Positions 24,465-33,168 of a DNA stretch of 64,000 bases are shown one piece after another. Numbering within the stretch: position 1 is the first letter of the stretch; each line of letters opens with the position of its first letter. This stretch comes from Blautia sp. (GTDB lineage: Bacteria; Bacillota; Clostridia; Lachnospirales; Lachnospiraceae), in contig JBKXQO010000001.1 of NCBI GenBank assembly GCA_047014865.1, positions 4,089-68,088 on the forward strand, given 5' to 3'. The position numbers and the translations under genes were made by a program. A model generated the notes under the pieces. That model did no database searches. It worked only from the letters and a program-made list of their open reading frames with translations, and was not told where the DNA came from.

Positions 24465-24477
24465 TATTCTGTAACAA
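24465..24477 (+). repeat. att core, left (TATTCTGTAACAA)
   Basis: Identical 13-mer at 33156-33168; host-type genes lie outside both copies. Confidence 0.8.
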
Positions 24478-24577
24478 GTTTAACTTACATCGTTTTCTGT
24501 AACATCAGCTATTTTCCTCATATAAAACGCTGCATTCCATATCATTTTTTGCTTATTATCCTATCTGTACATACTTT

Positions 24578-24595
24578 CAGTCCCATCTTAGTACC
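24578..24595 (+). repeat. Putative integrase arm-type site (CAGTCCCATCTTAGTACC)
   Basis: 15/18 match to TAGTACCATTTTAGTACC at 33076-33093. Confidence 0.55.
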
Positions 24596-25448
24596 ACCCC
24601 AAAGCCTCTCTTTCCACAGCACTGTACCACGTCCGTTTAAAGCTCTCCAGCCCTACATGGCGAATGGGCGCCGCTGCTAGGTACTGGTCATAATACTGCT
24701 TATACTGATACCTGTGCACCCTCTGCCTGAGAGTCCTCATCGCTTTCTTATCAAGCTGGCGAACATACTCCGTACTTACTCTCAGGTCTTCCCCCACCTC
24801 TTTCAGTGTCTTCTCCTCCTGATAGCGCATCCGGACAACCGTGGGCAGATTATCCGGCAATTCATCCACTGATCTCCACAGTTCTTCTTTCATTCGCTCC
24901 CTATCCAGGCGTTCAATAGCCTCTTCCTCCAAGTCTTCCTCTGAGGCTATGCTCTCCTCCAAGGTCAGATTCTCAGTACCTGGCAGAGGCTCGCTCAGGC
25001 TCTGTATTTGCCCCATTCTGGCCGTTTCTCTTAGCTTTTCGACCTTTCTCCTACCCACGCATAGAAGCCCACACATTTCCCTATCAGAGGGCTCATAGCC
25101 ATATCTCTTTATGAAATCATCCCTGGTCTTCCTGTACTGCCTTACTTCGTCATTCAGATAAGAAGGCAGCCTTATAGATCTGTCCTGCTCCATATACCGC
25201 CGCATCCTTGTCTTGATCCAGAACGCCGCATAGTTGATAAAAGGTACACCTCTAACGGCGTCATAGCCCCTCACGGCATCACACAGAGCCAGATATCCCT
25301 CCTGCTTTAAATCATCAAGTTCCTCCTGGCCGGAATAAATCATGGCCAGCTTCCCAATAAACCCCTGGTTCTGCTGCCAAAGTAAACGCATATTTTCCGC
25401 TTCGTCTATGCCATCCTGAATCAGGACTACAAGCTGCTCATTCGTCAT
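24588..25448 (-). CDS. Sigma-70 family RNA polymerase sigma factor (element-encoded)
   Basis: Region 2 DDLKQEGYLAL..AV..YD..RGVPFINYAAFWIK; region 3 SLSEP; region 4 KTLKEVGEDLRVSTEYVRQLDKKAMRTLR. Confidence 0.88.
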   Translation of the reverse strand: MTNEQLVVLIQDGIDEAENMRLLWQQNQGFIGKLAMIYSGQEELDDLKQEGYLALCDAVRGYDAVRGVPFINYAAFWIKTRMRRYMEQDRSIRLPSYLNDEVRQYRKTRDDFIKRYGYEPSDREMCGLLCVGRRKVEKLRETARMGQIQSLSEPLPGTENLTLEESIASEEDLEEEAIERLDRERMKEELWRSVDELPDNLPTVVRMRYQEEKTLKEVGEDLRVSTEYVRQLDKKAMRTLRQRVHRYQYKQYYDQYLAAAPIRHVGLESFKRTWYSAVEREALGWY

Positions 25449-25529
25449 AATGCCACCTCTTATCCTATCCCATTTATAAGAAAATCAGGCCCCATACCCC
25501 CCTTCTGGAAGCACAGGGCCCGTTGTCAG

Positions 25530-26393
25530 TTACTCACTGTCTGGCAAAGCCTGATAATAGATTGCTTTCGCTTTATTCTCCAGCACAAACGCATCATAGA
25601 CAATGCGCCCCTCTACCAATGACCCACTAAGGCCTGGTGGATTCTGATGTGTTTTATAGCTCTCCAACTTGGTAGGTGCGACTGTCGCACAAGGATGGAC
25701 AACCATAAAACCAAATTTCTCCGGCAGACGTTTAGCAGACACTTTGAGTACGTCCAGTCCGTCCAGATTCCCAACAAAGCCAACACTCCGTTTACCTTCA
25801 TCTAGTACCGCGCGGACCATATCCTGATATCTCCCTGCGCTATCCTTACTAGTCTTCATCAGAAGCAAAGTCTCCGGTGTTATGACTAAAATCCGTCCAG
25901 TCTCTGGTACATCTGCATTATCCAGAGCCGTGTTCGCTGTAAAAATCTCATCGTAGATATTGGAGGAAGTCAATTCTTTTTCTGCCGGCTTATTCCCCGC
26001 CCCTTCACAGATTTTCCCTAATACATAAGTATCTACCTCTGGGATCACCACTTCTCTCATCTGTCTGCTCAATGCAGTGGCCGCTTCCAGCTGGCCCTCG
26101 GTCTCCTCCGTGTCAAGCGTATCAATCGCAAAGGTAAAAGAACGGTCTTGGGACAGCTCTTTTCGTTCTGTCGTCGCGTTCAGCGCCTCTACCGCTCCAT
26201 AGCGTGACCAATTTCCCTCAGTGGCTCCGGTACGACCATAATCGTTCATTTTTCCGGTACTGATCTTATAGATCTTCACGGAGTGCGCACCAGAAAATGA
26301 AAAATCCTGATTTGTAAGATATTCTTTTTTACTCTCCTGTGTGAACTGTTCATCCACATAAGGGAGATATTTCTCAACTAACTCTATTGCCAT
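25530..26393 (-). CDS. Phage major capsid protein (Firmicute siphophage type)
   Basis: MAIELVEKY..YVDEQF, DRSFTFAID, VVIPEVDTY, LDNADVPETGR, NPPGLSGSLVEGRIVYDAFVL resemble this capsid family from recall; directly downstream of the scaffold gene. Confidence 0.78.
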   Translation of the reverse strand: MAIELVEKYLPYVDEQFTQESKKEYLTNQDFSFSGAHSVKIYKISTGKMNDYGRTGATEGNWSRYGAVEALNATTERKELSQDRSFTFAIDTLDTEETEGQLEAATALSRQMREVVIPEVDTYVLGKICEGAGNKPAEKELTSSNIYDEIFTANTALDNADVPETGRILVITPETLLLMKTSKDSAGRYQDMVRAVLDEGKRSVGFVGNLDGLDVLKVSAKRLPEKFGFMVVHPCATVAPTKLESYKTHQNPPGLSGSLVEGRIVYDAFVLENKAKAIYYQALPDSE

Positions 26394-26396
26394 CTA

Positions 26397-26858
26397 TCAT
26401 CTTCCTTTCAGACCCATCGCTTTCCTGATCTCATCGCTTCCAGCTTCCCCGCCCGTTGCCGATGAAGGTCCTGAGTTGCTGAGACTCCCGTTGAGAAGCC
26501 GGTAGGGTCTAAGATTAGAACCTTTGAAATAGGTGCTGATGAGCTCTATACTCTCTTCCATTTCTTCTTTATTTCCACATTTCACCAAGGGCAGCAGCTC
26601 TTTCGGTATTTTCTCATCTGCCAGCCTTTCCCTGGCATCCAGATGAAGCTCCCGCTCATTTAACGCCTGCTCCCGTTTGTCATGTTCAGAAGTATCCGGC
26701 AGATTTTTGGCCCTTGCGAGCCGCTCCCTGACGATCTTATTCACTTCCTCCTGGGTGAACAGTTTTTCCTCCGGCTGCTGGGTAGCGCCCTGCTGGCCGC
26801 TTGGTTCCTGCTGCTGTTCCTGTGCCATGTTCTGGCCTTCCACACTCTGATGCTCCAT
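26397..26858 (-). CDS. Capsid scaffolding protein (DUF4355-like)
   Basis: Low-complexity Q/E N-terminus followed by KLFTQEEVNKIVRERLAR; coiled-coil; precedes the capsid gene. Confidence 0.78.
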   Translation of the reverse strand: MEHQSVEGQNMAQEQQQEPSGQQGATQQPEEKLFTQEEVNKIVRERLARAKNLPDTSEHDKREQALNERELHLDARERLADEKIPKELLPLVKCGNKEEMEESIELISTYFKGSNLRPYRLLNGSLSNSGPSSATGGEAGSDEIRKAMGLKGR

Positions 26859-26925
26859 GTGTATCTCCTTTCCCCGTTTATCGCCCGGTCGGCTATATAA
26901 ATACAATGAGGATATTCAGACAAAT

Positions 26926-26984
26926 AAAAAAAAGGCGCAGGAATAACTTCTAGACATTTCTGTCTGTAAGTTATTTCCCACGCC
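26926..26984 (-). terminator. Long hairpin + U8 in the leader of the scaffold-capsid-sigma operon
   Basis: Minus strand GGCGUGGGAAAUAACUUACAGACA-GAAA-UGUCUAGAAGUUAUUCCUGCGCC-U8; G:U pairs only on the minus strand. Confidence 0.7.
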
Positions 26985-27059
26985 ATTCTCTCAAAGGCTT
27001 CCAGCGCTGGCAGTATTTAGCACTGGGGTACTTCTCAATATTCTATTTGACTCGAGATA

Positions 27060-27088
27060 ATTATACCAAACATGGGAGGGGTACGCAA
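27060..27088 (-). promoter_or_regulatory. SigA-type promoter TTGCGT-N17-TATAAT (extended TG) for the capsid operon
   Basis: Exact 17-nt spacer, TGnTATAAT. Confidence 0.65.
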
Positions 27089-27104
27089 CCCCGGAATCTT
27101 TTCT

Positions 27105-27314
27105 TTATACGGGTTTCCGAACCCCCTCCCCTTTACTAATTGCTGCTAAAACTCTAGTTTTCCCTAGTAATTCATGCCCTGAATGAGCCGCCATGGCTTT
27201 ATCTATTCTGCTTTTGATTTCAGGTTTTCTCAGGTTCTCCTCACCGACCGAATAGGCCGTCTGAGGGGAATAACCGGCTCTGATGGCAGCCTTATTGCTC
27301 CTTTGCTTCATCAA
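27105..27314 (-). pseudogene. terS: Terminase small subunit remnant
   Basis: AAIRAGYSPQTAYSVGEENLRKPEIKSRID is the TerS HTH motif. Only 69 aa, with no normal N-terminus or C-terminal oligomerisation part. Confidence 0.65.
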
Positions 27315-27427
27315 TAAATGCTTCCATCATCTTTGTAAGTTGTGTTCCCATCGCAACACCTTTTTACAGAAAAAACACCCCGTATTTCTACAGGGTGCCC
27401 CAGTAAATCCTTTTATTATTTGTGTAA

Positions 27428-27610
27428 TTATCTACTCAATTCCCTTGATTTCAACCATACATACGCCCTCTTATATTTGCCCTGCTGATTCTTAGATACC
27501 TTGCAGACCTTCACGGTATCCCCCAGGATTTCCAATACCAGATCCAAGTCCTCTTGTGTCTGGTAAGATACTCTTAGCCTTACGGGTAGTTTCTCAATCT
27601 TATCACTCAT
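27428..27610 (-). CDS. Small hypothetical protein (60 aa)
   Basis: GGAGG RBS; ATGA overlap with upstream ORF. Confidence 0.6.
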   Translation of the reverse strand: MSDKIEKLPVRLRVSYQTQEDLDLVLEILGDTVKVCKVSKNQQGKYKRAYVWLKSRELSR

Positions 27611-27726
27611 CTGATTACCTCCATGTACATTCTATGCACTATATGAAATATCAACTTTAGAGCTCTTCCATCAATTATCTCGTCAATCATTTTTTTAATA
27701 CAATCCCTGTACTCTTCTTTACTCAT
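27607..27726 (-). CDS. Small hypothetical protein (39 aa, MSKEEYRDCIKKMIDEII...)
   Basis: Below ORF-track cutoff; AAGGAAG RBS; stop overlaps the next ATG. Confidence 0.55.
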   Translation of the reverse strand: MSKEEYRDCIKKMIDEIIDGRALKLIFHIVHRMYMEVIR

Positions 27727-27747
27727 CTTACTCTTCCTTTCCGCTAA

Positions 27748-27776
27748 TTTACTTTTAATTAAAACTATGGTACTAT
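27748..27776 (+). promoter_or_regulatory. Promoter TTTACT-N17-TACTAT (extended TG) for a counter-oriented sRNA
   Basis: 17-nt spacer; directly precedes a structured non-coding unit that ends in a terminator. Confidence 0.55.
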
Positions 27777-27781
27777 GTACC

Positions 27782-27856
27782 TGTCTCCTTTTTAAAGCCG
27801 CCCAGCTTTTCGGAGATAGACAGCCCTGTAGGTATTTATCTATAGGGCCTTTTTTT
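27782..27856 (+). ncRNA. Putative ~75-nt regulatory sRNA with CGCCCA loop
   Basis: Promoter, AAAGC-CGCCCA-GCUUU hairpin, terminator GCCCUGUAGGU-AUUU-AUCUAUAGGGC-C-U7 with G:U pairs favouring the + strand. Confidence 0.6.
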
Positions 27857-27858
27857 GG

Positions 27859-28029
27859 TTACTTGTACCTTAACATTTCCTCGATAGAGTCCAGCATAAA
27901 GACTTTCAGCATCTCAATGCCTTGGTTCCGATCAAAGCCATAGAGCCGCAATATTTCAAGCCTATGGTTCTGCTGCGTAATCCAGTTTTTTAACAGCTTG
28001 TCCTTTTCTTCCTGTGATATCTGGTACAT
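27859..28029 (-). CDS. Small hypothetical protein (56 aa, MYQISQEEKDKLL...)
   Basis: GGAGG RBS; TAATG coupling to upstream ORF. Confidence 0.6.
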   Translation of the reverse strand: MYQISQEEKDKLLKNWITQQNHRLEILRLYGFDRNQGIEMLKVFMLDSIEEMLRYK

Positions 28030-28172
28030 TATTTTCTCCTCCCTTTTTTCTTTGACTTTATGAACTGAAACATTTTAGCCTGAATTCTGGCTTTCTCCAT
28101 TGGGAGCTCTATGCAACCATCCTCTTTTATGACACGAAACCCGTTTTCACTGCCTGTCTTACTTTTGCTCAT
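28029..28172 (-). CDS. Small basic hypothetical protein (47 aa, MSKSKTGSENG...)
   Basis: GGAGGTG RBS; coupled to the downstream ORF. Confidence 0.55.
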   Translation of the reverse strand: MSKSKTGSENGFRVIKEDGCIELPMEKARIQAKMFQFIKSKKKGRRK

Positions 28173-28178
28173 TTTGGA

Positions 28179-28448
28179 TCACCTCCTCAGTTTATTTATG
28201 CTTTTCTGTGATACATTAAAAAATATTTTTACATAGTGTTCATCACAGTAAGAACAATCTCCAAAATATCCGCATCTTGCCATAGCCTGTTTAAATTCTT
28301 CATGCGTTACGTCTGGAATATCTCTTTGTACAAGTCGCAGCAAAAACACAGAATTACAATCATTCCGGATATTTTTTGATGGTGAGAATTTCTTGTCAAT
28401 CCAGTTACATATCATAAGCTGTCTATCAACCACTTTACTAAAGGTCAT
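28179..28448 (-). CDS. Hypothetical protein (89 aa) downstream of the replicase
   Basis: AGGAG RBS; ORF track. Confidence 0.6.
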   Translation of the reverse strand: MTFSKVVDRQLMICNWIDKKFSPSKNIRNDCNSVFLLRLVQRDIPDVTHEEFKQAMARCGYFGDCSYCDEHYVKIFFNVSQKSINKLRR

Positions 28449-28476
28449 TGTCTCACTCCTATACTGGTAAATAATA

Positions 28477-28525
28477 TTTCTTTCATTTCTTTTGTTTCGG
28501 TGGAAATGAAAGAAACAAAAGAAAC
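28477..28525. repeat. Iteron-like inverted/direct repeats, candidate replication origin
   Basis: TTTCTTTCATTTCTTTTGTTTC-GGTG-GAAATGAAAGAAACAAAAGAAAC, immediately after the replicase stop. Confidence 0.5.
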
Positions 28526-28545
28526 GTTTGTTATGTGTTTAAGTC

Positions 28546-30405
28546 TTATAAAAATGGGTTTTCGGATTCAAAAACATGAATACAGGCTGCCGTGCCTTTG
28601 CTGATTTCTGAATGGTGAATAGCGTCGTATTCCTCCAGGTCCAGCAGTAACGCTTTAATCTGGTTCCCAACTTTCTGAGAAGTGCCATATATCCGGCATC
28701 CCTTGAAGTATTGGCTGCTCTCTATAATATCCTTTACCCGGCCTTTCCACTTACCCTTGCCCTGGTCTACAAGGTGCCTTATAGTATTCACTATAGGGTC
28801 ACGGTCATAAGCCTGACGCTTTCTTGTCTCTTCTACGGCTGCGGCATCACCTAAATTCTCCCACTTAACACCATTGCGTTTCAGCTTATAACTACTGTCT
28901 ATGAGCGTCCTTCCTGTTATTGCAAGGGTGGCTTCTTTGTCCTCTCGCTTCTCTTTGTAGAGAACCCATACAAAATCACTTACACCGATGATCGCAGTAG
29001 ATCCTAAAAGATTACTGAACGGGTCTGTAGGGTCAACAAATTTCCTATCATGGTATATGGGCATGATGCACACGCCAAAACGGTCTGCAATCTGTTTGAG
29101 CTTTGTCAGAATTTCATAATCTGCTTCATAGTCCGTTTGGTTGAGCTGTTTCCCTCTTTTTACTTTCTGGAACACATCAATAACGACCATTTTTACATCC
29201 GGGTTCCCTTCCAGGAAACTACATAAATCTTCTTCAAATCCTTCACCCATTAAATTAAAATCGTGAGCAAAGCATAAATTATGCGGCGGTTCTCTCCCGT
29301 CCAATATCGCTCTCAATCTATCCTGTGTTAGAGATGGAGTATTCTCAAGATCCACATATAGGACACCACATTTCTTCGTAGTAAACCCCAGAAACTTATC
29401 TCCACACGCCAGATCGACACTTAATTGTAGCGCAAGCCAGCTCTTACCCAATTTCGACTTAGCGGACAGCCCCCCTAATCCTTTTGTTAAAATTCCTTCT
29501 ACAAGGTGTATAATAGGTGGCAGATCGGCTGTCATTAAAGCATCCGCCCCAGTATAATTGATTGTCTTTTTTTCTGTCTTCTGCCGGAACTTACCATTAT
29601 CGTACACCGCCGTATATGACTTTTCCGTTTTCCAGCCCCGTTTCAACGCAGGAAACACTGTCTTTTCAAGTTCCTGGTCAGTGAGCGGTGGAACGCACTT
29701 CTTGTCATTTTCTGCCCGGATTGCTGCCTTGATTGCTTCATCATCAAGCCCCTTTGCTTTTAAGCTACCAATCAGCTTAATCATAGCGTTTGTCCGTTCC
29801 CCTTCGGAGATTGTCTCCGGCATCTGAAAAAGTTCCTGCCTTTCTGGAACTGATCCCATGAGAAAATTTGCCACTCTGCCATCTACCTGGGCAATCTCAC
29901 AATCTCCCGGCCCCTGCTCCCATTCATACTGACGCCCATTTGGGTGTATGCTTGGCGGAGCCACTATGTACCCGCCCTCTCCACGGATATCAACCCCCTC
30001 ATAAAGCCCGACACGGTTCCGATTCACGGCACTATCCCTGTATAAAAGATGATAGCCGCCCCGGCCTGTGACACTTGTCCATGTGTCAGGAAGCTCCCCA
30101 TTCTCCCTCTGCCAGTCCCTTAAAACATCGTAGCCATCAATCCCCTTGTCCTTATCTACATCCAGATCAATAACCACCAGGCCGTTAGATTTGCCCCCTG
30201 TAGCGATTCCAATATTGTACTGGGGATTAATCCCCCACCAGTCTTCTATCTGCTGTAAATCAGTGGTAGCGGCCTTACAGCCATTTTCTGTTGCTGGGCG
30301 CTTGTCTTGCGGCTTCAGGGGAAACACAGATAAGCCCCAATGGGCGTATCTCAACGCCCAATCTCTCAGTGTCTCCAGCTTACTCACCTGCCTTAACGCC
30401 GCCAT
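28546..30405 (-). CDS. Bifunctional primase-polymerase (Prim-Pol) + PriCT + RecA-like AAA helicase
   Basis: VFPL..K.P, NIGIATG, VIDLD, TGRGGYHL, DIRGEGGYIVAPPSIH; ERTN..PPL..EL; AKSKLGKS Walker A, VVIDVFQ. Confidence 0.88.
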   Translation of the reverse strand: MAALRQVSKLETLRDWALRYAHWGLSVFPLKPQDKRPATENGCKAATTDLQQIEDWWGINPQYNIGIATGGKSNGLVVIDLDVDKDKGIDGYDVLRDWQRENGELPDTWTSVTGRGGYHLLYRDSAVNRNRVGLYEGVDIRGEGGYIVAPPSIHPNGRQYEWEQGPGDCEIAQVDGRVANFLMGSVPERQELFQMPETISEGERTNAMIKLIGSLKAKGLDDEAIKAAIRAENDKKCVPPLTDQELEKTVFPALKRGWKTEKSYTAVYDNGKFRQKTEKKTINYTGADALMTADLPPIIHLVEGILTKGLGGLSAKSKLGKSWLALQLSVDLACGDKFLGFTTKKCGVLYVDLENTPSLTQDRLRAILDGREPPHNLCFAHDFNLMGEGFEEDLCSFLEGNPDVKMVVIDVFQKVKRGKQLNQTDYEADYEILTKLKQIADRFGVCIMPIYHDRKFVDPTDPFSNLLGSTAIIGVSDFVWVLYKEKREDKEATLAITGRTLIDSSYKLKRNGVKWENLGDAAAVEETRKRQAYDRDPIVNTIRHLVDQGKGKWKGRVKDIIESSQYFKGCRIYGTSQKVGNQIKALLLDLEEYDAIHHSEISKGTAACIHVFESENPFL

Positions 30406-30571
30406 AGCAGCATTTCTCCTCGAAATAGGCCCTATTCACCTTCCCAGCTATGGTTATGTACCCCTGTGCCTTTAACCGCCCATTCAGCTCCCGGATCACC
30501 TCATAGGCCTTCCCCTCACTCACTCCAAGGGCCTCTTGCACTTCCTTTACCGTTACAAATTGCTTATTCAT
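30380..30571 (-). CDS. xis: Excisionase-like HTH protein
   Basis: FVTVKEVQEALGVSEGKAYEVIRELN..L...GYITIAGKV, typical of Firmicute ICE/prophage Xis. Confidence 0.72.
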   Translation of the reverse strand: MNKQFVTVKEVQEALGVSEGKAYEVIRELNGRLKAQGYITIAGKVNRAYFEEKCCYGGVKAGE

Positions 30572-30588
30572 TGGCTCCTCCTTTCCCA

Positions 30589-30801
30589 TTAGGCAAAGAT
30601 AATCTTGTGACTTGGTTCTTCTATCCCCTTGTATTTCACAACACAGCAGAATCCATAATCATAATAGACCGCTGGTACTTCTGCGCTTGCAGATCTGCTA
30701 ATCTTAATTTCTGTCACATAATCTACTCCTACGGTGTGCGCTTTCTCAATTAACGCCGCAACCTCATAAGACTTCGTTAAATATACCTTGTATCCTTCCA
30801 T
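30589..30801 (-). CDS. Hypothetical protein (MEGYKVYLTKS..., 70 aa)
   Basis: AGGAGG RBS at 30809-30814; between cro and xis. Confidence 0.6.
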   Translation of the reverse strand: MEGYKVYLTKSYEVAALIEKAHTVGVDYVTEIKISRSASAEVPAVYYDYGFCCVVKYKGIEEPSHKIIFA

Positions 30802-30821
30802 TGTTCTTCCTCCTTTTCTTC

Positions 30822-30840
30822 TCATCCATGCCGCCCAGCA
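30822..30840 (+). repeat. 19-bp repeat copy 1 (TCATCCATGCCGCCCAGCA)
   Basis: Identical to 31973-31991. Confidence 0.85.
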
Positions 30841-30846
30841 TAGAGA

Positions 30847-31056
30847 TTATTCTTCTGTTTCGATGATCTCAGTTACATCAACGCCGAGAGCTTTCGCGAT
30901 CTTTCCGACAGTTAATGGCTTGCAAGTTTTTTTAGTAAGTACATTAGCTAAAGATGTTTTTGGCATGGCTGCTTTTTTTGCTAATCCTTCTGTAGAAAGA
31001 CAGTTCCTTGCCATAGATAGCTCAATCTTTTCTTTGCTTATCCTCAATATGCTCAC
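30847..31056 (-). CDS. Cro-like XRE HTH protein
   Basis: Short HTH (LAKKAAMPKTSLANV...KIAKALGVDVTEII), divergent from the repressor. Confidence 0.8.
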   Translation of the reverse strand: MSILRISKEKIELSMARNCLSTEGLAKKAAMPKTSLANVLTKKTCKPLTVGKIAKALGVDVTEIIETEE

Positions 31057-31066
31057 CTCTTTTCAA

Positions 31067-31141
31067 ACAGTATTTTTACTGTTTTTCACAATATATCACA
31101 GCATTATTATTGTGTCAATATAAAAACAGTTTTTTTATTGT
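31067..31141. promoter_or_regulatory. Genetic switch: three 16-bp operators and leftward promoter TTGACA-N17-TATATT
   Basis: ACAGTATTTTTACTGT (31067-82), ACAGCATTATTATTGT (31098-113), ACAGTTTTTTTATTGT (31126-141); -35 at 31113-118, -10 at 31090-95 on the minus strand. Confidence 0.7.
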
Positions 31142-31190
31142 GTTTCTGTACATAATATGATAAAGTAATTGCAATGGAGGTATACAGGAT

Positions 31191-31640
31191 ATGACATTTG
31201 GTGAAAGAGTAAAAGAATTACGCTTAAAAAAAGGACTTACTCAACGTGAACTTGGTGAAAGAATGGGGGGAATAACCCAACAAACTATTGCACAATATGA
31301 AAAAATAGTTGAACAACCCAAATTAGTTACCATTCGCAAAATAGCAAATGCTCTTGATGTAAAATTGTATGAACTGGTGATAGACTGGTCACAATTTTCC
31401 CCTGAAGAATTAAAAGAAGATTTTACCAATACTGACGGAAATTTCTACGGAAAAGAAGCATCCCCTGAAGAACAGCAAAAATTCATGGATCGTTTGTTTA
31501 ATGGCAAAAACGAGGCTTCCAACAAAAGAAAAGCCTTAGATAAAAAAATAGATCAGTTTAATGATGATGGAATACAGAAGATTTCTGATTATGCAGATGA
31601 TATAATGAAAATCCCCGAATACCGCAAAGACACCGAATAA
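31191..31640 (+). CDS. XRE-family (CI/Stl-like) repressor
   Basis: MTFGERVKELRLKKGLTQRELGERMGGITQQTIAQYE HTH. Confidence 0.88.
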   Translation: MTFGERVKELRLKKGLTQRELGERMGGITQQTIAQYEKIVEQPKLVTIRKIANALDVKLYELVIDWSQFSPEELKEDFTNTDGNFYGKEASPEEQQKFMDRLFNGKNEASNKRKALDKKIDQFNDDGIQKISDYADDIMKIPEYRKDTE

Positions 31641-31663
31641 GGTCGTGAATCACGACCTTATTC
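31635..31663. repeat. Perfect 14-bp inverted repeat at the repressor stop
   Basis: GAATAAGGTCGTGA-A-TCACGACCTTATTC. Confidence 0.7.
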
Positions 31664-31752
31664 CGCACCTTGACAATATAATATACTTACCCAGGGAACC
31701 GATGGGGCGACTACACCAGTCACCGGAATACAAATGAAGGGAGCTGGTGCCA

Positions 31753-31839
31753 ATGATTACAGTGTCGGAATTATTCCAGTTTGTAACCATGCTTTGTGCA
31801 GTGATAACTCTTGTTATTTACATATCACGCAAAAAGTAG
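31753..31839 (+). CDS. Type I toxin, holin-like single-TM peptide (MITVSELFQFVTMLCAVITLVIYISRKK)
   Basis: 28 aa, GAAGGGAG RBS, hydrophobic helix with basic C-terminus; convergent antisense promoter. Confidence 0.75.
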   Translation: MITVSELFQFVTMLCAVITLVIYISRKK

Positions 31840-31925
31840 CGCCCTCGGTCTGGTAAACTAAGGCGCTACTTTAGCAAATTACTTTACCGGCGACTAGGTG
31901 TGTTCTAGTCATCGGTTCTCTTGTT
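31830..31925 (-). ncRNA. Putative antisense antitoxin RNA
   Basis: Consensus TTGACA-N17-TATAAT on the minus strand (31960-31932); hairpin AAAGUAGCGCC...GGCGCUACUUUUU overlapping the toxin stop. Confidence 0.65.
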
Positions 31926-31960
31926 AAGTATATTATATGTCAATAAAAAACTATTGTCAA

Positions 31961-32006
31961 ATACCTTTCTCTTCATCCATGCCGCCCAGCAAGAAAGGAA
32001 GGGTAT
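31961..32006 (+). promoter_or_regulatory. RBS-sequestering hairpin in the integrase leader; its loop holds repeat copy 2 (31973-31991)
   Basis: AUACCUUUCU-c-UUC pairs with GAA-a-GGAAGGGUAU just before ATG 32008. Confidence 0.55.
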
Positions 32007-32007
32007 T

Positions 32008-33078
32008 ATGCCAGTATTTAAAGACGAACAACGGGGAACTTACTTTGTAAAATGCTACTACACAGACCACACCGGAACCCGGAAACAGAAAAAGAAACGG
32101 GGCTTTAAACTCCAGAGGGACGCCAAAGAATGGGAAAGGAATTTTCTGGAGACTCAACAGGCTGACCTTAATATATCCTTTGAATCCTTTGTAAAAATCT
32201 ATAATGAGGACATGAAGCACCGCCTCAGGGAGCATACCTTTATTCAGAAGCAGTATGTCATAAACAAGAAGCTGCTGCCTTTCTTTGGAAAACTCCCAGT
32301 GTCGCAGATCACCCCGGCTCATGTGCGGAAATGGCAAAATGCATTGATCGCCTACCGGGATGAAAAAGACAAGCCCTATTCTGAAACCTATCTACGGACA
32401 ATTAACAACCAACTTTCCGCCATCATGAATTACGCTGTCCGGTACTACGATTTAAAAGATAACCCATGCCGCAAAGCCGGGAGCATAGGAAAAGGCCATG
32501 CGGATGAAATGCAGTTCTGGACTACGGACGAATTTAAGCGGTTCCTTGAAAAGATCTCTGATAAACCAGCCTCAAGAGCCGGATTTCTCATTCTGTATTA
32601 TACGGGCTTACGCATAGGAGAACTATTAGCCCTAGAATATGCCGATATAGATTTTAAAAGCTGCACAATCAACATAAATAAATCCTACCAGCATATCAAC
32701 GGAAAGGACGTTGTAACGCCGCCTAAAACGCCCAAGAGCGTCCGTATTGTGTCTATCCCGGAATTTCTACGGGACGAGATTAAAAGCTATACAGAACGGC
32801 TCTACGGCCTCCATAAGCATGACCGGATTTTCCCATACACAAAACACTTTTTCGAACGTGAAATGATACGAGGAACCAAGGATGGGGAAATAAAGCGGAT
32901 CCGGCTCCACGACATTCGTCACAGCCATGCCAGCCTGTTGATTGAGATGGAATTCTCTGCCCTATCTGTTGCCGACCGCCTGGGGCATGAGAAAGTAGAA
33001 ACCACTCTCAATACCTATTCCCATCTGTTTCCCCACAAGCGGGATGAAGTGGCCGAAAAGCTCCAAAAATTAAAATAG
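32008..33078 (+). CDS. int: Tyrosine recombinase / site-specific integrase
   Basis: Arm-binding N-terminus (KQKKKRGFKLQRDAKEWE); YTGLRIGELLAL, PKT, HDIRHSHAS, LGH, TYSH catalytic motifs. Confidence 0.95.
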   Translation: MPVFKDEQRGTYFVKCYYTDHTGTRKQKKKRGFKLQRDAKEWERNFLETQQADLNISFESFVKIYNEDMKHRLREHTFIQKQYVINKKLLPFFGKLPVSQITPAHVRKWQNALIAYRDEKDKPYSETYLRTINNQLSAIMNYAVRYYDLKDNPCRKAGSIGKGHADEMQFWTTDEFKRFLEKISDKPASRAGFLILYYTGLRIGELLALEYADIDFKSCTININKSYQHINGKDVVTPPKTPKSVRIVSIPEFLRDEIKSYTERLYGLHKHDRIFPYTKHFFEREMIRGTKDGEIKRIRLHDIRHSHASLLIEMEFSALSVADRLGHEKVETTLNTYSHLFPHKRDEVAEKLQKLK

Positions 33079-33093
33079 TACCATTTTAGTACC
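33076..33093 (+). repeat. Putative integrase arm-type site (TAGTACCATTTTAGTACC)
   Basis: Internal TAGTACC tandem; near match at 24578-24595. Confidence 0.55.
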
Positions 33094-33155
33094 GCAAGCA
33101 TAAAGAAAAAGCCGATTTTCCTTGTAAATTCAAGGTTTCTCGGCTCTTTTCTATT

Positions 33156-33168
33156 TATTCTGTAACAA
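33156..33168 (+). repeat. att core, right (TATTCTGTAACAA)
   Basis: Identical to 24465-24477; ~80 bp downstream of int. Confidence 0.8.

Follow-up and report, generated by a model that had tools for sequence, protein, structure and literature searches.

A satellite-type element of a Blautia genome with its own capsid and scaffold genes and captured pieces of phage terS

The stretch of DNA analysed here (the window) comprises 64,000 nucleotides of a Blautia sp. genome (Lachnospiraceae; GenBank assembly GCA_047014865.1, contig JBKXQO010000001.1, positions 4,089 to 68,088 of the forward strand). It contains an element bounded by two 13-bp direct repeats with a spacing of 8,691 bp, and just these two copies of the repeat exist across the 3.06-Mb assembly. 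The original prediction, made from the letters alone, had described an att-bounded unit of 8.7 kb, which this spacing bears out. Family scans likewise recovered the proposed order of integrase, repressor divergent from cro, xis, primase-replicase and small open reading frames (ORFs), as well as genes for a scaffold and an HK97-fold capsid (Table 1). Portal, large terminase (TerL), protease and tail families were not found among the 14 element ORFs scanned, in line with the claim that the element has its own capsid and scaffold with neither portal nor TerL. Upstream of the scaffold gene lie captured pieces of the small terminase gene (terS) of two phages, centred on a shared repeat and recurring across the family of related elements, and this is the new observation.

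Table 1. Features of the 8.7-kb element, in window coordinates
Feature	Position	Strand	Evidence or remark
att core, left end (13-bp direct repeat)	24465..24477
Sigma-70 family factor, 286 aa	24588..25448	-	Pfam r2 and r4 above cut-off; phrog_351
Terminator-like hairpin between capsid and sigma genes	25486..25522	-	consensus scan alone
HK97-fold major capsid protein, 287 aa	25530..26393	-	phrog_422 (3e-55), PDB 8e16, Foldseek, dN/dS, tree
Head scaffolding protein, 153 aa	26397..26858	-	PF14265, phrog_172
Scaffold-gene leader: strong terminator-like hairpin, then small conserved hairpin-like motif directly before the ribosome-binding site	26859..26995	-
terS-like ORF, 69 aa	27105-27314	-	PF03592, model positions 19-71 of 141 alone
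Captured terS piece 2 (terS nt 105-147)	27138..27180	-	pac-like 10-bp-period repeat 27150-27172
Captured terS piece 1 (terS nt 59-163)	27188..27292	-	pac-like repeat 27216-27238
Four small ORFs (60, 56, 47, 89 aa), function unassigned	27428..28448	-	family scans
Primase-polymerase/helicase	28546..30405	-	Prim-Pol, PriCT_1, AAA_25
Xis-like HTH protein	30380-30589	-	NF047858 3e-21, below cut-off
70-aa ORF beside Xis-like gene	within 30380..30801	-
cro-like protein	30847-31056	-	divergent from repressor
XRE repressor	31191-31640	+	divergent from cro-like gene
Putative type I toxin-antitoxin module	31676..31960		28-aa hydrophobic ORF 31753-31839 (+), 42-nt inverted arms
Tyrosine integrase with arm-binding domain, 356 aa	32008..33078	+	family scans; dN/dS 0.04 against L013
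att core, right end (13-bp direct repeat)	33156..33168

Profile searches agreed with the predicted scaffold, and profile and structure searches with the predicted capsid fold. All four PDB profile matches of the capsid were phage capsids (8e16 at 2.8e-12), as was every listed Foldseek match of its structural model, a model of modest quality (pLDDT 59). Its nearest annotated relatives, 40-44% identical, belong to ordinary tailed phages of 34-39 kb, and in five of five inspected phages with a related capsid terL and portal genes lie upstream of scaffold and capsid. Similarity to the capsid served to gather loci: genomes supplied 12 and viral contigs 5, to which were added the best 80 of 411 viral matches, the best 80 of 559 metagenome matches, 12 from 400 genomes of the host's family and 32 around a full-phage capsid. 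The family as used here comprises 170 loci (capsid at least 50% identical, not dereplicated), 116 of which have at least 3 kb of upstream sequence. In none of these 116 (0/170 overall) did marker BLAST or profiles built from phage loci place a portal, TerL or MuF gene ahead of the capsid. The scaffold cluster is present in 123 family loci. The ratio of non-synonymous to synonymous substitution (dN/dS) was 0.02-0.05 for the capsid, about 0.2 for the scaffold and 0.11-0.27 for the sigma factor. A quick tree, from which 37 capsids of unclear context had been dropped, covered 85 dereplicated sequences labelled according to their gene surroundings, and 69 of its 70 satellite-context rows fell in one branch (SH-aLRT 98) containing none of the 15 full-phage rows. 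Since a capsid homologue was found in 12 of those 400 genomes, one or more of the 12 being a full prophage, the family is common. Named hosts of the relatives include Ruminococcus sp., Lachnospiraceae, Oscillospiraceae and Veillonella, and relatives swap replication modules of DnaC, DnaD and primase/helicase type.

Packaging genes do occur behind the capsid in some of the 170 loci: TerS in 4, TerL in 13 and TerS, TerL and portal together in 1. Members with packaging genes in this position are L069, L098, L107, L109, L110-L128 and L123-L125 (the prefix L denotes a locus), and a shorter TerL-like gene follows the capsid in a separate cluster of 4. Without a portal, a tape-measure-like gene (phrog_1068) follows the capsid in a cluster of 6 loci and a head-tail adaptor (phrog_615) in 7 loci; members with one or the other are L047, L083, L084, L088, L090, L091, L093 and L089. 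Such genes possibly allow a satellite to control tail length.

The closest relative, L013, is a circular contig 8,713 bp long whose genes are those of the window element, its capsid being 98% and its integrase 93% identical. The L013 junction joins homologues of both ends of the window element with matching spacing and a different core. Twelve of 14 circular relatives are 7.7-10.4 kb in size; the other two, L143 and L155, are 3-kb circles with part of the genes and may be either minimal forms or artefacts of assembly. Among the integrated relatives, those with long end repeats (18-53 bp) cover 7.7-9.6 kb and occupy several insertion sites, and one locus, L206, holds two element copies in tandem. 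The right att copy of the window element lies 90 bp from the integrase end, compared with about 80-225 bp for the long repeats of the relatives. Moreover, an arm-like 8-bp word is present just inside both element ends.

What had been called a terS remnant is indeed terS-derived, with a partial PF03592 match, but it really consists of two segments captured from the terS genes of different phages. These make the 69-aa ORF a chimera, and both pieces cover one spot of the gene. Piece 1 is identical at 104 of 105 positions to the terS of phage L327 and at 102 of 105 to that of L328. Piece 2 is identical at 40 of 43 positions, 32 of them contiguous, to the terS of a prophage resident in the same genome (G000, C20:60731-60773, E 9e-11), and its repeat and that of the prophage agree without mismatch over 23 nt. 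Two captured pac-like segments in place of a remnant would mean that TerS is borrowed too. L013 is without the terS pieces of the window and has one repeat of its own. L013 and L328, a 36.9-kb phage whose terS is 97% identical to piece 1, share a dataset number in their public names.

The captured spot corresponds to a regular feature of phage terS. Across 98 phage terS genes a 10-bp-period direct repeat occurs at one position (mean lag-10 identity 7.4/10 at nt 112, median 2.6), and the peptide encoded there varies. We read this repeat as probably the TerS-binding part of pac, because in SPP1 the pac site and the sequence coding for the DNA-binding domain of TerS overlap and because a terS fragment of staphylococcal origin works as a packaging region, raising plasmid transduction in S. 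aureus by about 5 logs. In PLE, a 14-bp pac mimic is required. Of 167 dereplicated elements, 15 (that of the window among them) have exact 17-mers from the terS spot on their coding strand, in every case 0.5-1.5 kb ahead of the capsid start; 2 further elements have them on the other strand near the integrase. A motif model of the repeat (leave-one-out sensitivity 0.83; 19 matches on both strands of the host genome, or 0.003 per kb) gave 68 coding-strand matches within 1 kb ahead of the scaffold and another 30 directly behind the capsid; the remaining 500-bp bins held 0-1 each, and on the opposite strand there were 4 matches before the scaffold. The motif precedes the scaffold in 23 of 131 elements, with at least two matches in 12 and up to seven. 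It is carried by 27 of 74 near-complete elements, compared with 1-6 in ten shuffles; some of these carry arrays, and the commonest non-zero class is a single copy (11/27). In a held-out test, viral contigs were scanned with three array units that have no exact match in the terS set. The first unit gave 10 matches, namely 8 in terS at the same position, 1 in a satellite and 1 unrelated (8/9 non-satellite matches). The third gave 114, comprising 109 in TerS-profile genes at one position, 2 in satellites, 2 in a gene just before terL and 1 unassigned (109/112).

The co-resident prophage is of siphophage type and extends over two contig ends of the host genome (C20:44.3-63.9 kb and C1:189.8-207.6 kb), the two arms probably being one element. 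Its genes include integrase, terS and terL, a portal truncated where the contig stops, scaffold and capsid, together with head-tail adaptor, tail tube, tape measure and lysin. The portal was identified as phrog_533, and a search of the host genome with the portal family PF05133 found none. A siphophage helper had been proposed, and this complete-looking prophage could supply terminase, portal and tail. Its capsid is 26% identical to that of the satellite. Three relatives (L055, L096 and L095) are located inside prophages with a capsid that shares 62% identity with the one in the co-resident prophage. L055 and L096 are inserted within the prophage major capsid gene, which L096 splits at residues ~87-98 with a 14-bp repeat at both ends, and L095 is inserted ~500 bp after that gene. 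Excision of relatives inserted in a helper capsid gene would restore its function.

We favour, with moderate confidence, the reading of the element as a PICI-like satellite (PICI, phage-inducible chromosomal island) of temperate, headful-packaging tailed phages, which uses pac mimicry and its own small shell together with a helper portal and tail. The parts of this reading differ in strength: that the element is a satellite is highly likely, packaging by pac mimicry is likely, and a functional shell of its own is somewhat probable. Helper induction or infection would lift the repressor, whereupon integrase and Xis would excise the 8.7-kb circle (circles were seen in relatives only) and the primase-helicase, judging by its domains, would replicate it. 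The element encodes no working terminase, and its copies of the terS repeat, the capture of which is observed, may let the helper TerS-TerL start headful packaging on satellite DNA. The window copy appears to hold the signals of two phages, one being the prophage of the same genome, and relatives those of several in arrays. Capsid and scaffold would build a small shell that accepts portal, neck and tail from the helper and has no room for the helper genome; in SPP1, scaffold, capsid and portal form the minimal procapsid. A shell of about T=4 is suggested by the ~10-kb capacity quoted by Aguilar et al. and by the narrow range of element sizes, not by the structural model of the capsid. Finally, the sigma factor might switch on the late genes. 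A wider reading, to which we give slightly less than even credence, is that this lineage, widespread among gut Clostridia, with its own small HK97 shell and free of terminase and portal, widens its helper range through a library of pac repeats from the terS of many phages and obtains portal, neck and tail from any helper that happens to be induced. The family would then be a live series, from members with capsid and scaffold only to those with TerS, TerL, portal, adaptor or tape measure, forming a path toward capsid-forming PICIs (cf-PICIs).

Several points weigh against the favoured reading. The empty att site for which the original prediction had called was not found: searches with the left flank against 41 relatives and with the right flank against 136 genomes of the genus gave no syntenic empty locus for the window copy, and only matches of 65-81%. 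None of the literature searched shows pac identity for the exact repeat. No repeat was detectable in 47 of the 74 near-complete relatives by a model that covers one TerS family only, and the second held-out unit matched only 2 satellites. The scaffolds of satellite and prophage have no significant similarity, and with capsids only 26% identical, borrowing the prophage portal would need unusual tolerance. In EcCICFT073, deletion of the capsid homologue left transfer almost unchanged and lambda packages the island in normal-size heads. Moreover, the loci were chosen by similarity to the window capsid, and the tree is a quick one.

The chief rival keeps the same satellite and pac mimicry but sends the DNA as concatemers into normal helper heads, with capsid and scaffold serving either interference, by soaking up portal or forming aberrant shells, or co-assembly in the manner of SaPIbov5 Ccm. 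That Ccm is ~23% identical to the helper capsid and needs it, which is close to the 26% found here; the EcCICFT073 capsid gene is dispensable for transfer, and arrays for many helpers would be easier to use without a portal fit. We nevertheless consider this rival unlikely, given that the cognate scaffold is kept across those 123 loci, that the capsid is under strong purifying selection and the element size is narrow, and that in some members TerS, TerL or portal has been acquired behind the capsid, as though to complete a head of their own. It is improbable that the terS repeats are instead decoys titrating helper TerS, or regulatory sites, with packaging by another route. Many-site arrays would suit a sponge, some matches lie on the opposite strand and many members have no repeats, but the orientation bias before the scaffold (68 against 4) fits directional packaging, single copies form the largest class among the carriers and the window element is without a TerS of its own.

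Two further accounts are very improbable. One holds that the element is an autonomous HK97 virus without portal or tail, or an encapsulin-like shell, into which single-stranded DNA (ssDNA) is packaged via a Rep protein. Circles are common, and weak Linocin_M18 matches were seen in 6 of 27 capsids scanned (best 5.6e-5, below cut-off). The idea fits poorly, however, because the Prim-Pol/AAA_25 replicase showed no HUH motif when one was looked for, because the replicases of relatives are interchangeable and because captured terS segments are senseless without a helper terminase. The nearest capsids are moreover from tailed phages, the structure matches are phage capsids, and the window capsid has no encapsulin Pfam domain at E up to 10. 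The shell domain and cargo operon that define an encapsulin nanocompartment are likewise lacking, the context being integrase, replicase and scaffold. The other account is that of a deletion remnant of a full prophage, to which the phage-like gene order and the broken terS would be suited. It is largely refuted by the purifying selection, the circles, the separate capsid branch, the lack of a phage head arrangement in all 116 loci and the terS ORF, a chimera of two phages absent from L013. These results agree with the original view of a coherent mobile satellite-type element.

Aguilar et al. 2026 (PMC13669383, 'Encapsulin-enriched twilight mini genomes') describe a dominant group of 76 circles from the human gut, 8.75 ± 0.7 kb in size, that carry genes for integrase, XRE repressor, Xis, RepA/helicase and sigma factor, and that have capsid and scaffold as the only structural genes; the capsid is 281-284 aa in three of four mapped genomes, and the capsids of the group fall in a BS=100 clade. 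The gene order (Fig. 4B maps) and size are those of the 8,691-bp unit and of the 8,713-bp L013 circle. The encapsulin Pfam domain, which counts as a mark of this group, is lacking in the window capsid. Judged from layout, size and the weak Linocin_M18 signal of its relatives, the window element very probably belongs to this group. The suggestion of an undescribed family therefore does not hold, as gene order and size had been published and capsid-bearing PICIs without portal or TerL have long been known. Circles alone are studied there, 'prophage' and 'Clostridia' have 0 occurrences and no helper is named in the text consulted; two hypotheses are left open, a satellite or Rep-driven ssDNA packaging by an ssDNA virus. 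The integrated copy, the candidate helper in the same genome and the captured terS segments favour the satellite answer. The question at stake is how portal-less 8-9-kb HK97 elements of the gut package their DNA, and a 150-bp segment makes the satellite answer testable.

With respect to the PICI core of SatelliteFinder (PMC10085698), the window element has an integrase with att sites, a primase-replicase and a capsid morphogenesis gene, and it has no portal, tail, holin or head-tail genes, a weak 'holin' PHROG match of a 28-aa peptide aside. A divergent XRE/cro pair occupies the Stl position and may be the regulator of alpA/merR/stl type, and of a small terminase there is the chimeric fragment alone. 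The element has at least three, and probably four, of the five core parts, and PICIs with four of five are admitted as type B. EcCICFT073, PmCI172 (PMC6092414) and SaPIbov5 with its Ccm (PMC6893505) share with it the integrase-regulator-replicase order and a capsid gene without portal or TerL. What sets it apart is a capsid derived from a Firmicutes head module of pac type, together with a scaffold of its own and a sigma factor that follows. EcCICFT073 and SaPIbov5 carry a helper cos site and do not rely on a TerS of their own, whereas the window element borrows several terS-internal repeats. EfCIV583 and PLE (PMC11417361, PMC3675006, PMC6893505) also hold a copy of helper pac, and have small heads; PLE further resembles the window element in a sigma-70-like gene. 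However, EfCIV583 has no recognizable capsid or scaffold gene, and PLE, which mimics a single phage, reshapes the capsids of its helper. The EfCIV583 and PLE literature searched showed no multi-helper pac array. Own capsid and borrowed tail are shared with cf-PICIs (PMC10085698), which encode portal, TerS, TerL, protease and head-tail proteins, none of which the window element has. In its workings it resembles a PICI with head genes of its own and mimicry of helper pac sites, and it is not a cf-PICI. The single ingredients, a capsid-bearing PICI and pac mimicry, are already known; their combination, or multi-helper arrays, was not found in literature searches that left most subscription journals outside. 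Active pac copies could drive lateral transduction of the flanking chromosome. The terS-internal repeat predicts pac sites for many Firmicutes phages, and if the pac library reading is true, the arrays would show where pac lies in a large class of temperate phages.

All three genes of the predicted scaffold-capsid-sigma operon were identified, but a single operon is not certain because of the terminator-like hairpin between capsid and sigma. The sigma homologue follows the capsid gene in 74 family loci, and phrog_36 regulators, with which the sigma factor has no pairwise similarity, fill this slot in 9 and 4 other loci; on this sequence context a role as putative late-gene activator is plausible. 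The scaffold leader holds a strong hairpin (fold z = -5.65), which suggests that the late genes are held off until sigma acts. The hairpin-like motif before the ribosome-binding site (26859-26900) is present in 75 of 102 family leaders compared with 5 of 21 full phages, has apparent paired changes and folds weakly by itself. Rfam gave nothing significant in the window element or in 11 short loci, the leader motif included. We regard this motif as a candidate translational operator.

Lastly, the remaining features concern the small ORFs and the regulatory region. Family scans of the 60-, 56-, 47- and 89-aa ORFs gave no matches. For the 60-aa ORF the Atlas gave only scores below 0.9; it is a family feature, its cluster occurring in 42 loci. 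The segment between repressor and integrase is labelled a putative type I toxin-antitoxin module by its resemblance to such modules. It has a weak Rfam comparison at best (BsrG, E 0.11) and a perfect sigma-70 promoter opposite in strand to the 28-aa ORF. Homologues of this 28-aa peptide occur in many family loci near repressor and integrase; it had no Pfam match and a weak 'holin' match (phrog_3488, 5e-4). For the putative ori of the original prediction, the element offers only AT-rich gaps of 30% and 35% GC. One 18-bp word is found at two places in the genome, behind cro (30823-30840) and ahead of the integrase (31974-31991), with a partial copy at 27797. It is kept in L013, and its position means that divergent transcripts would be complementary there.

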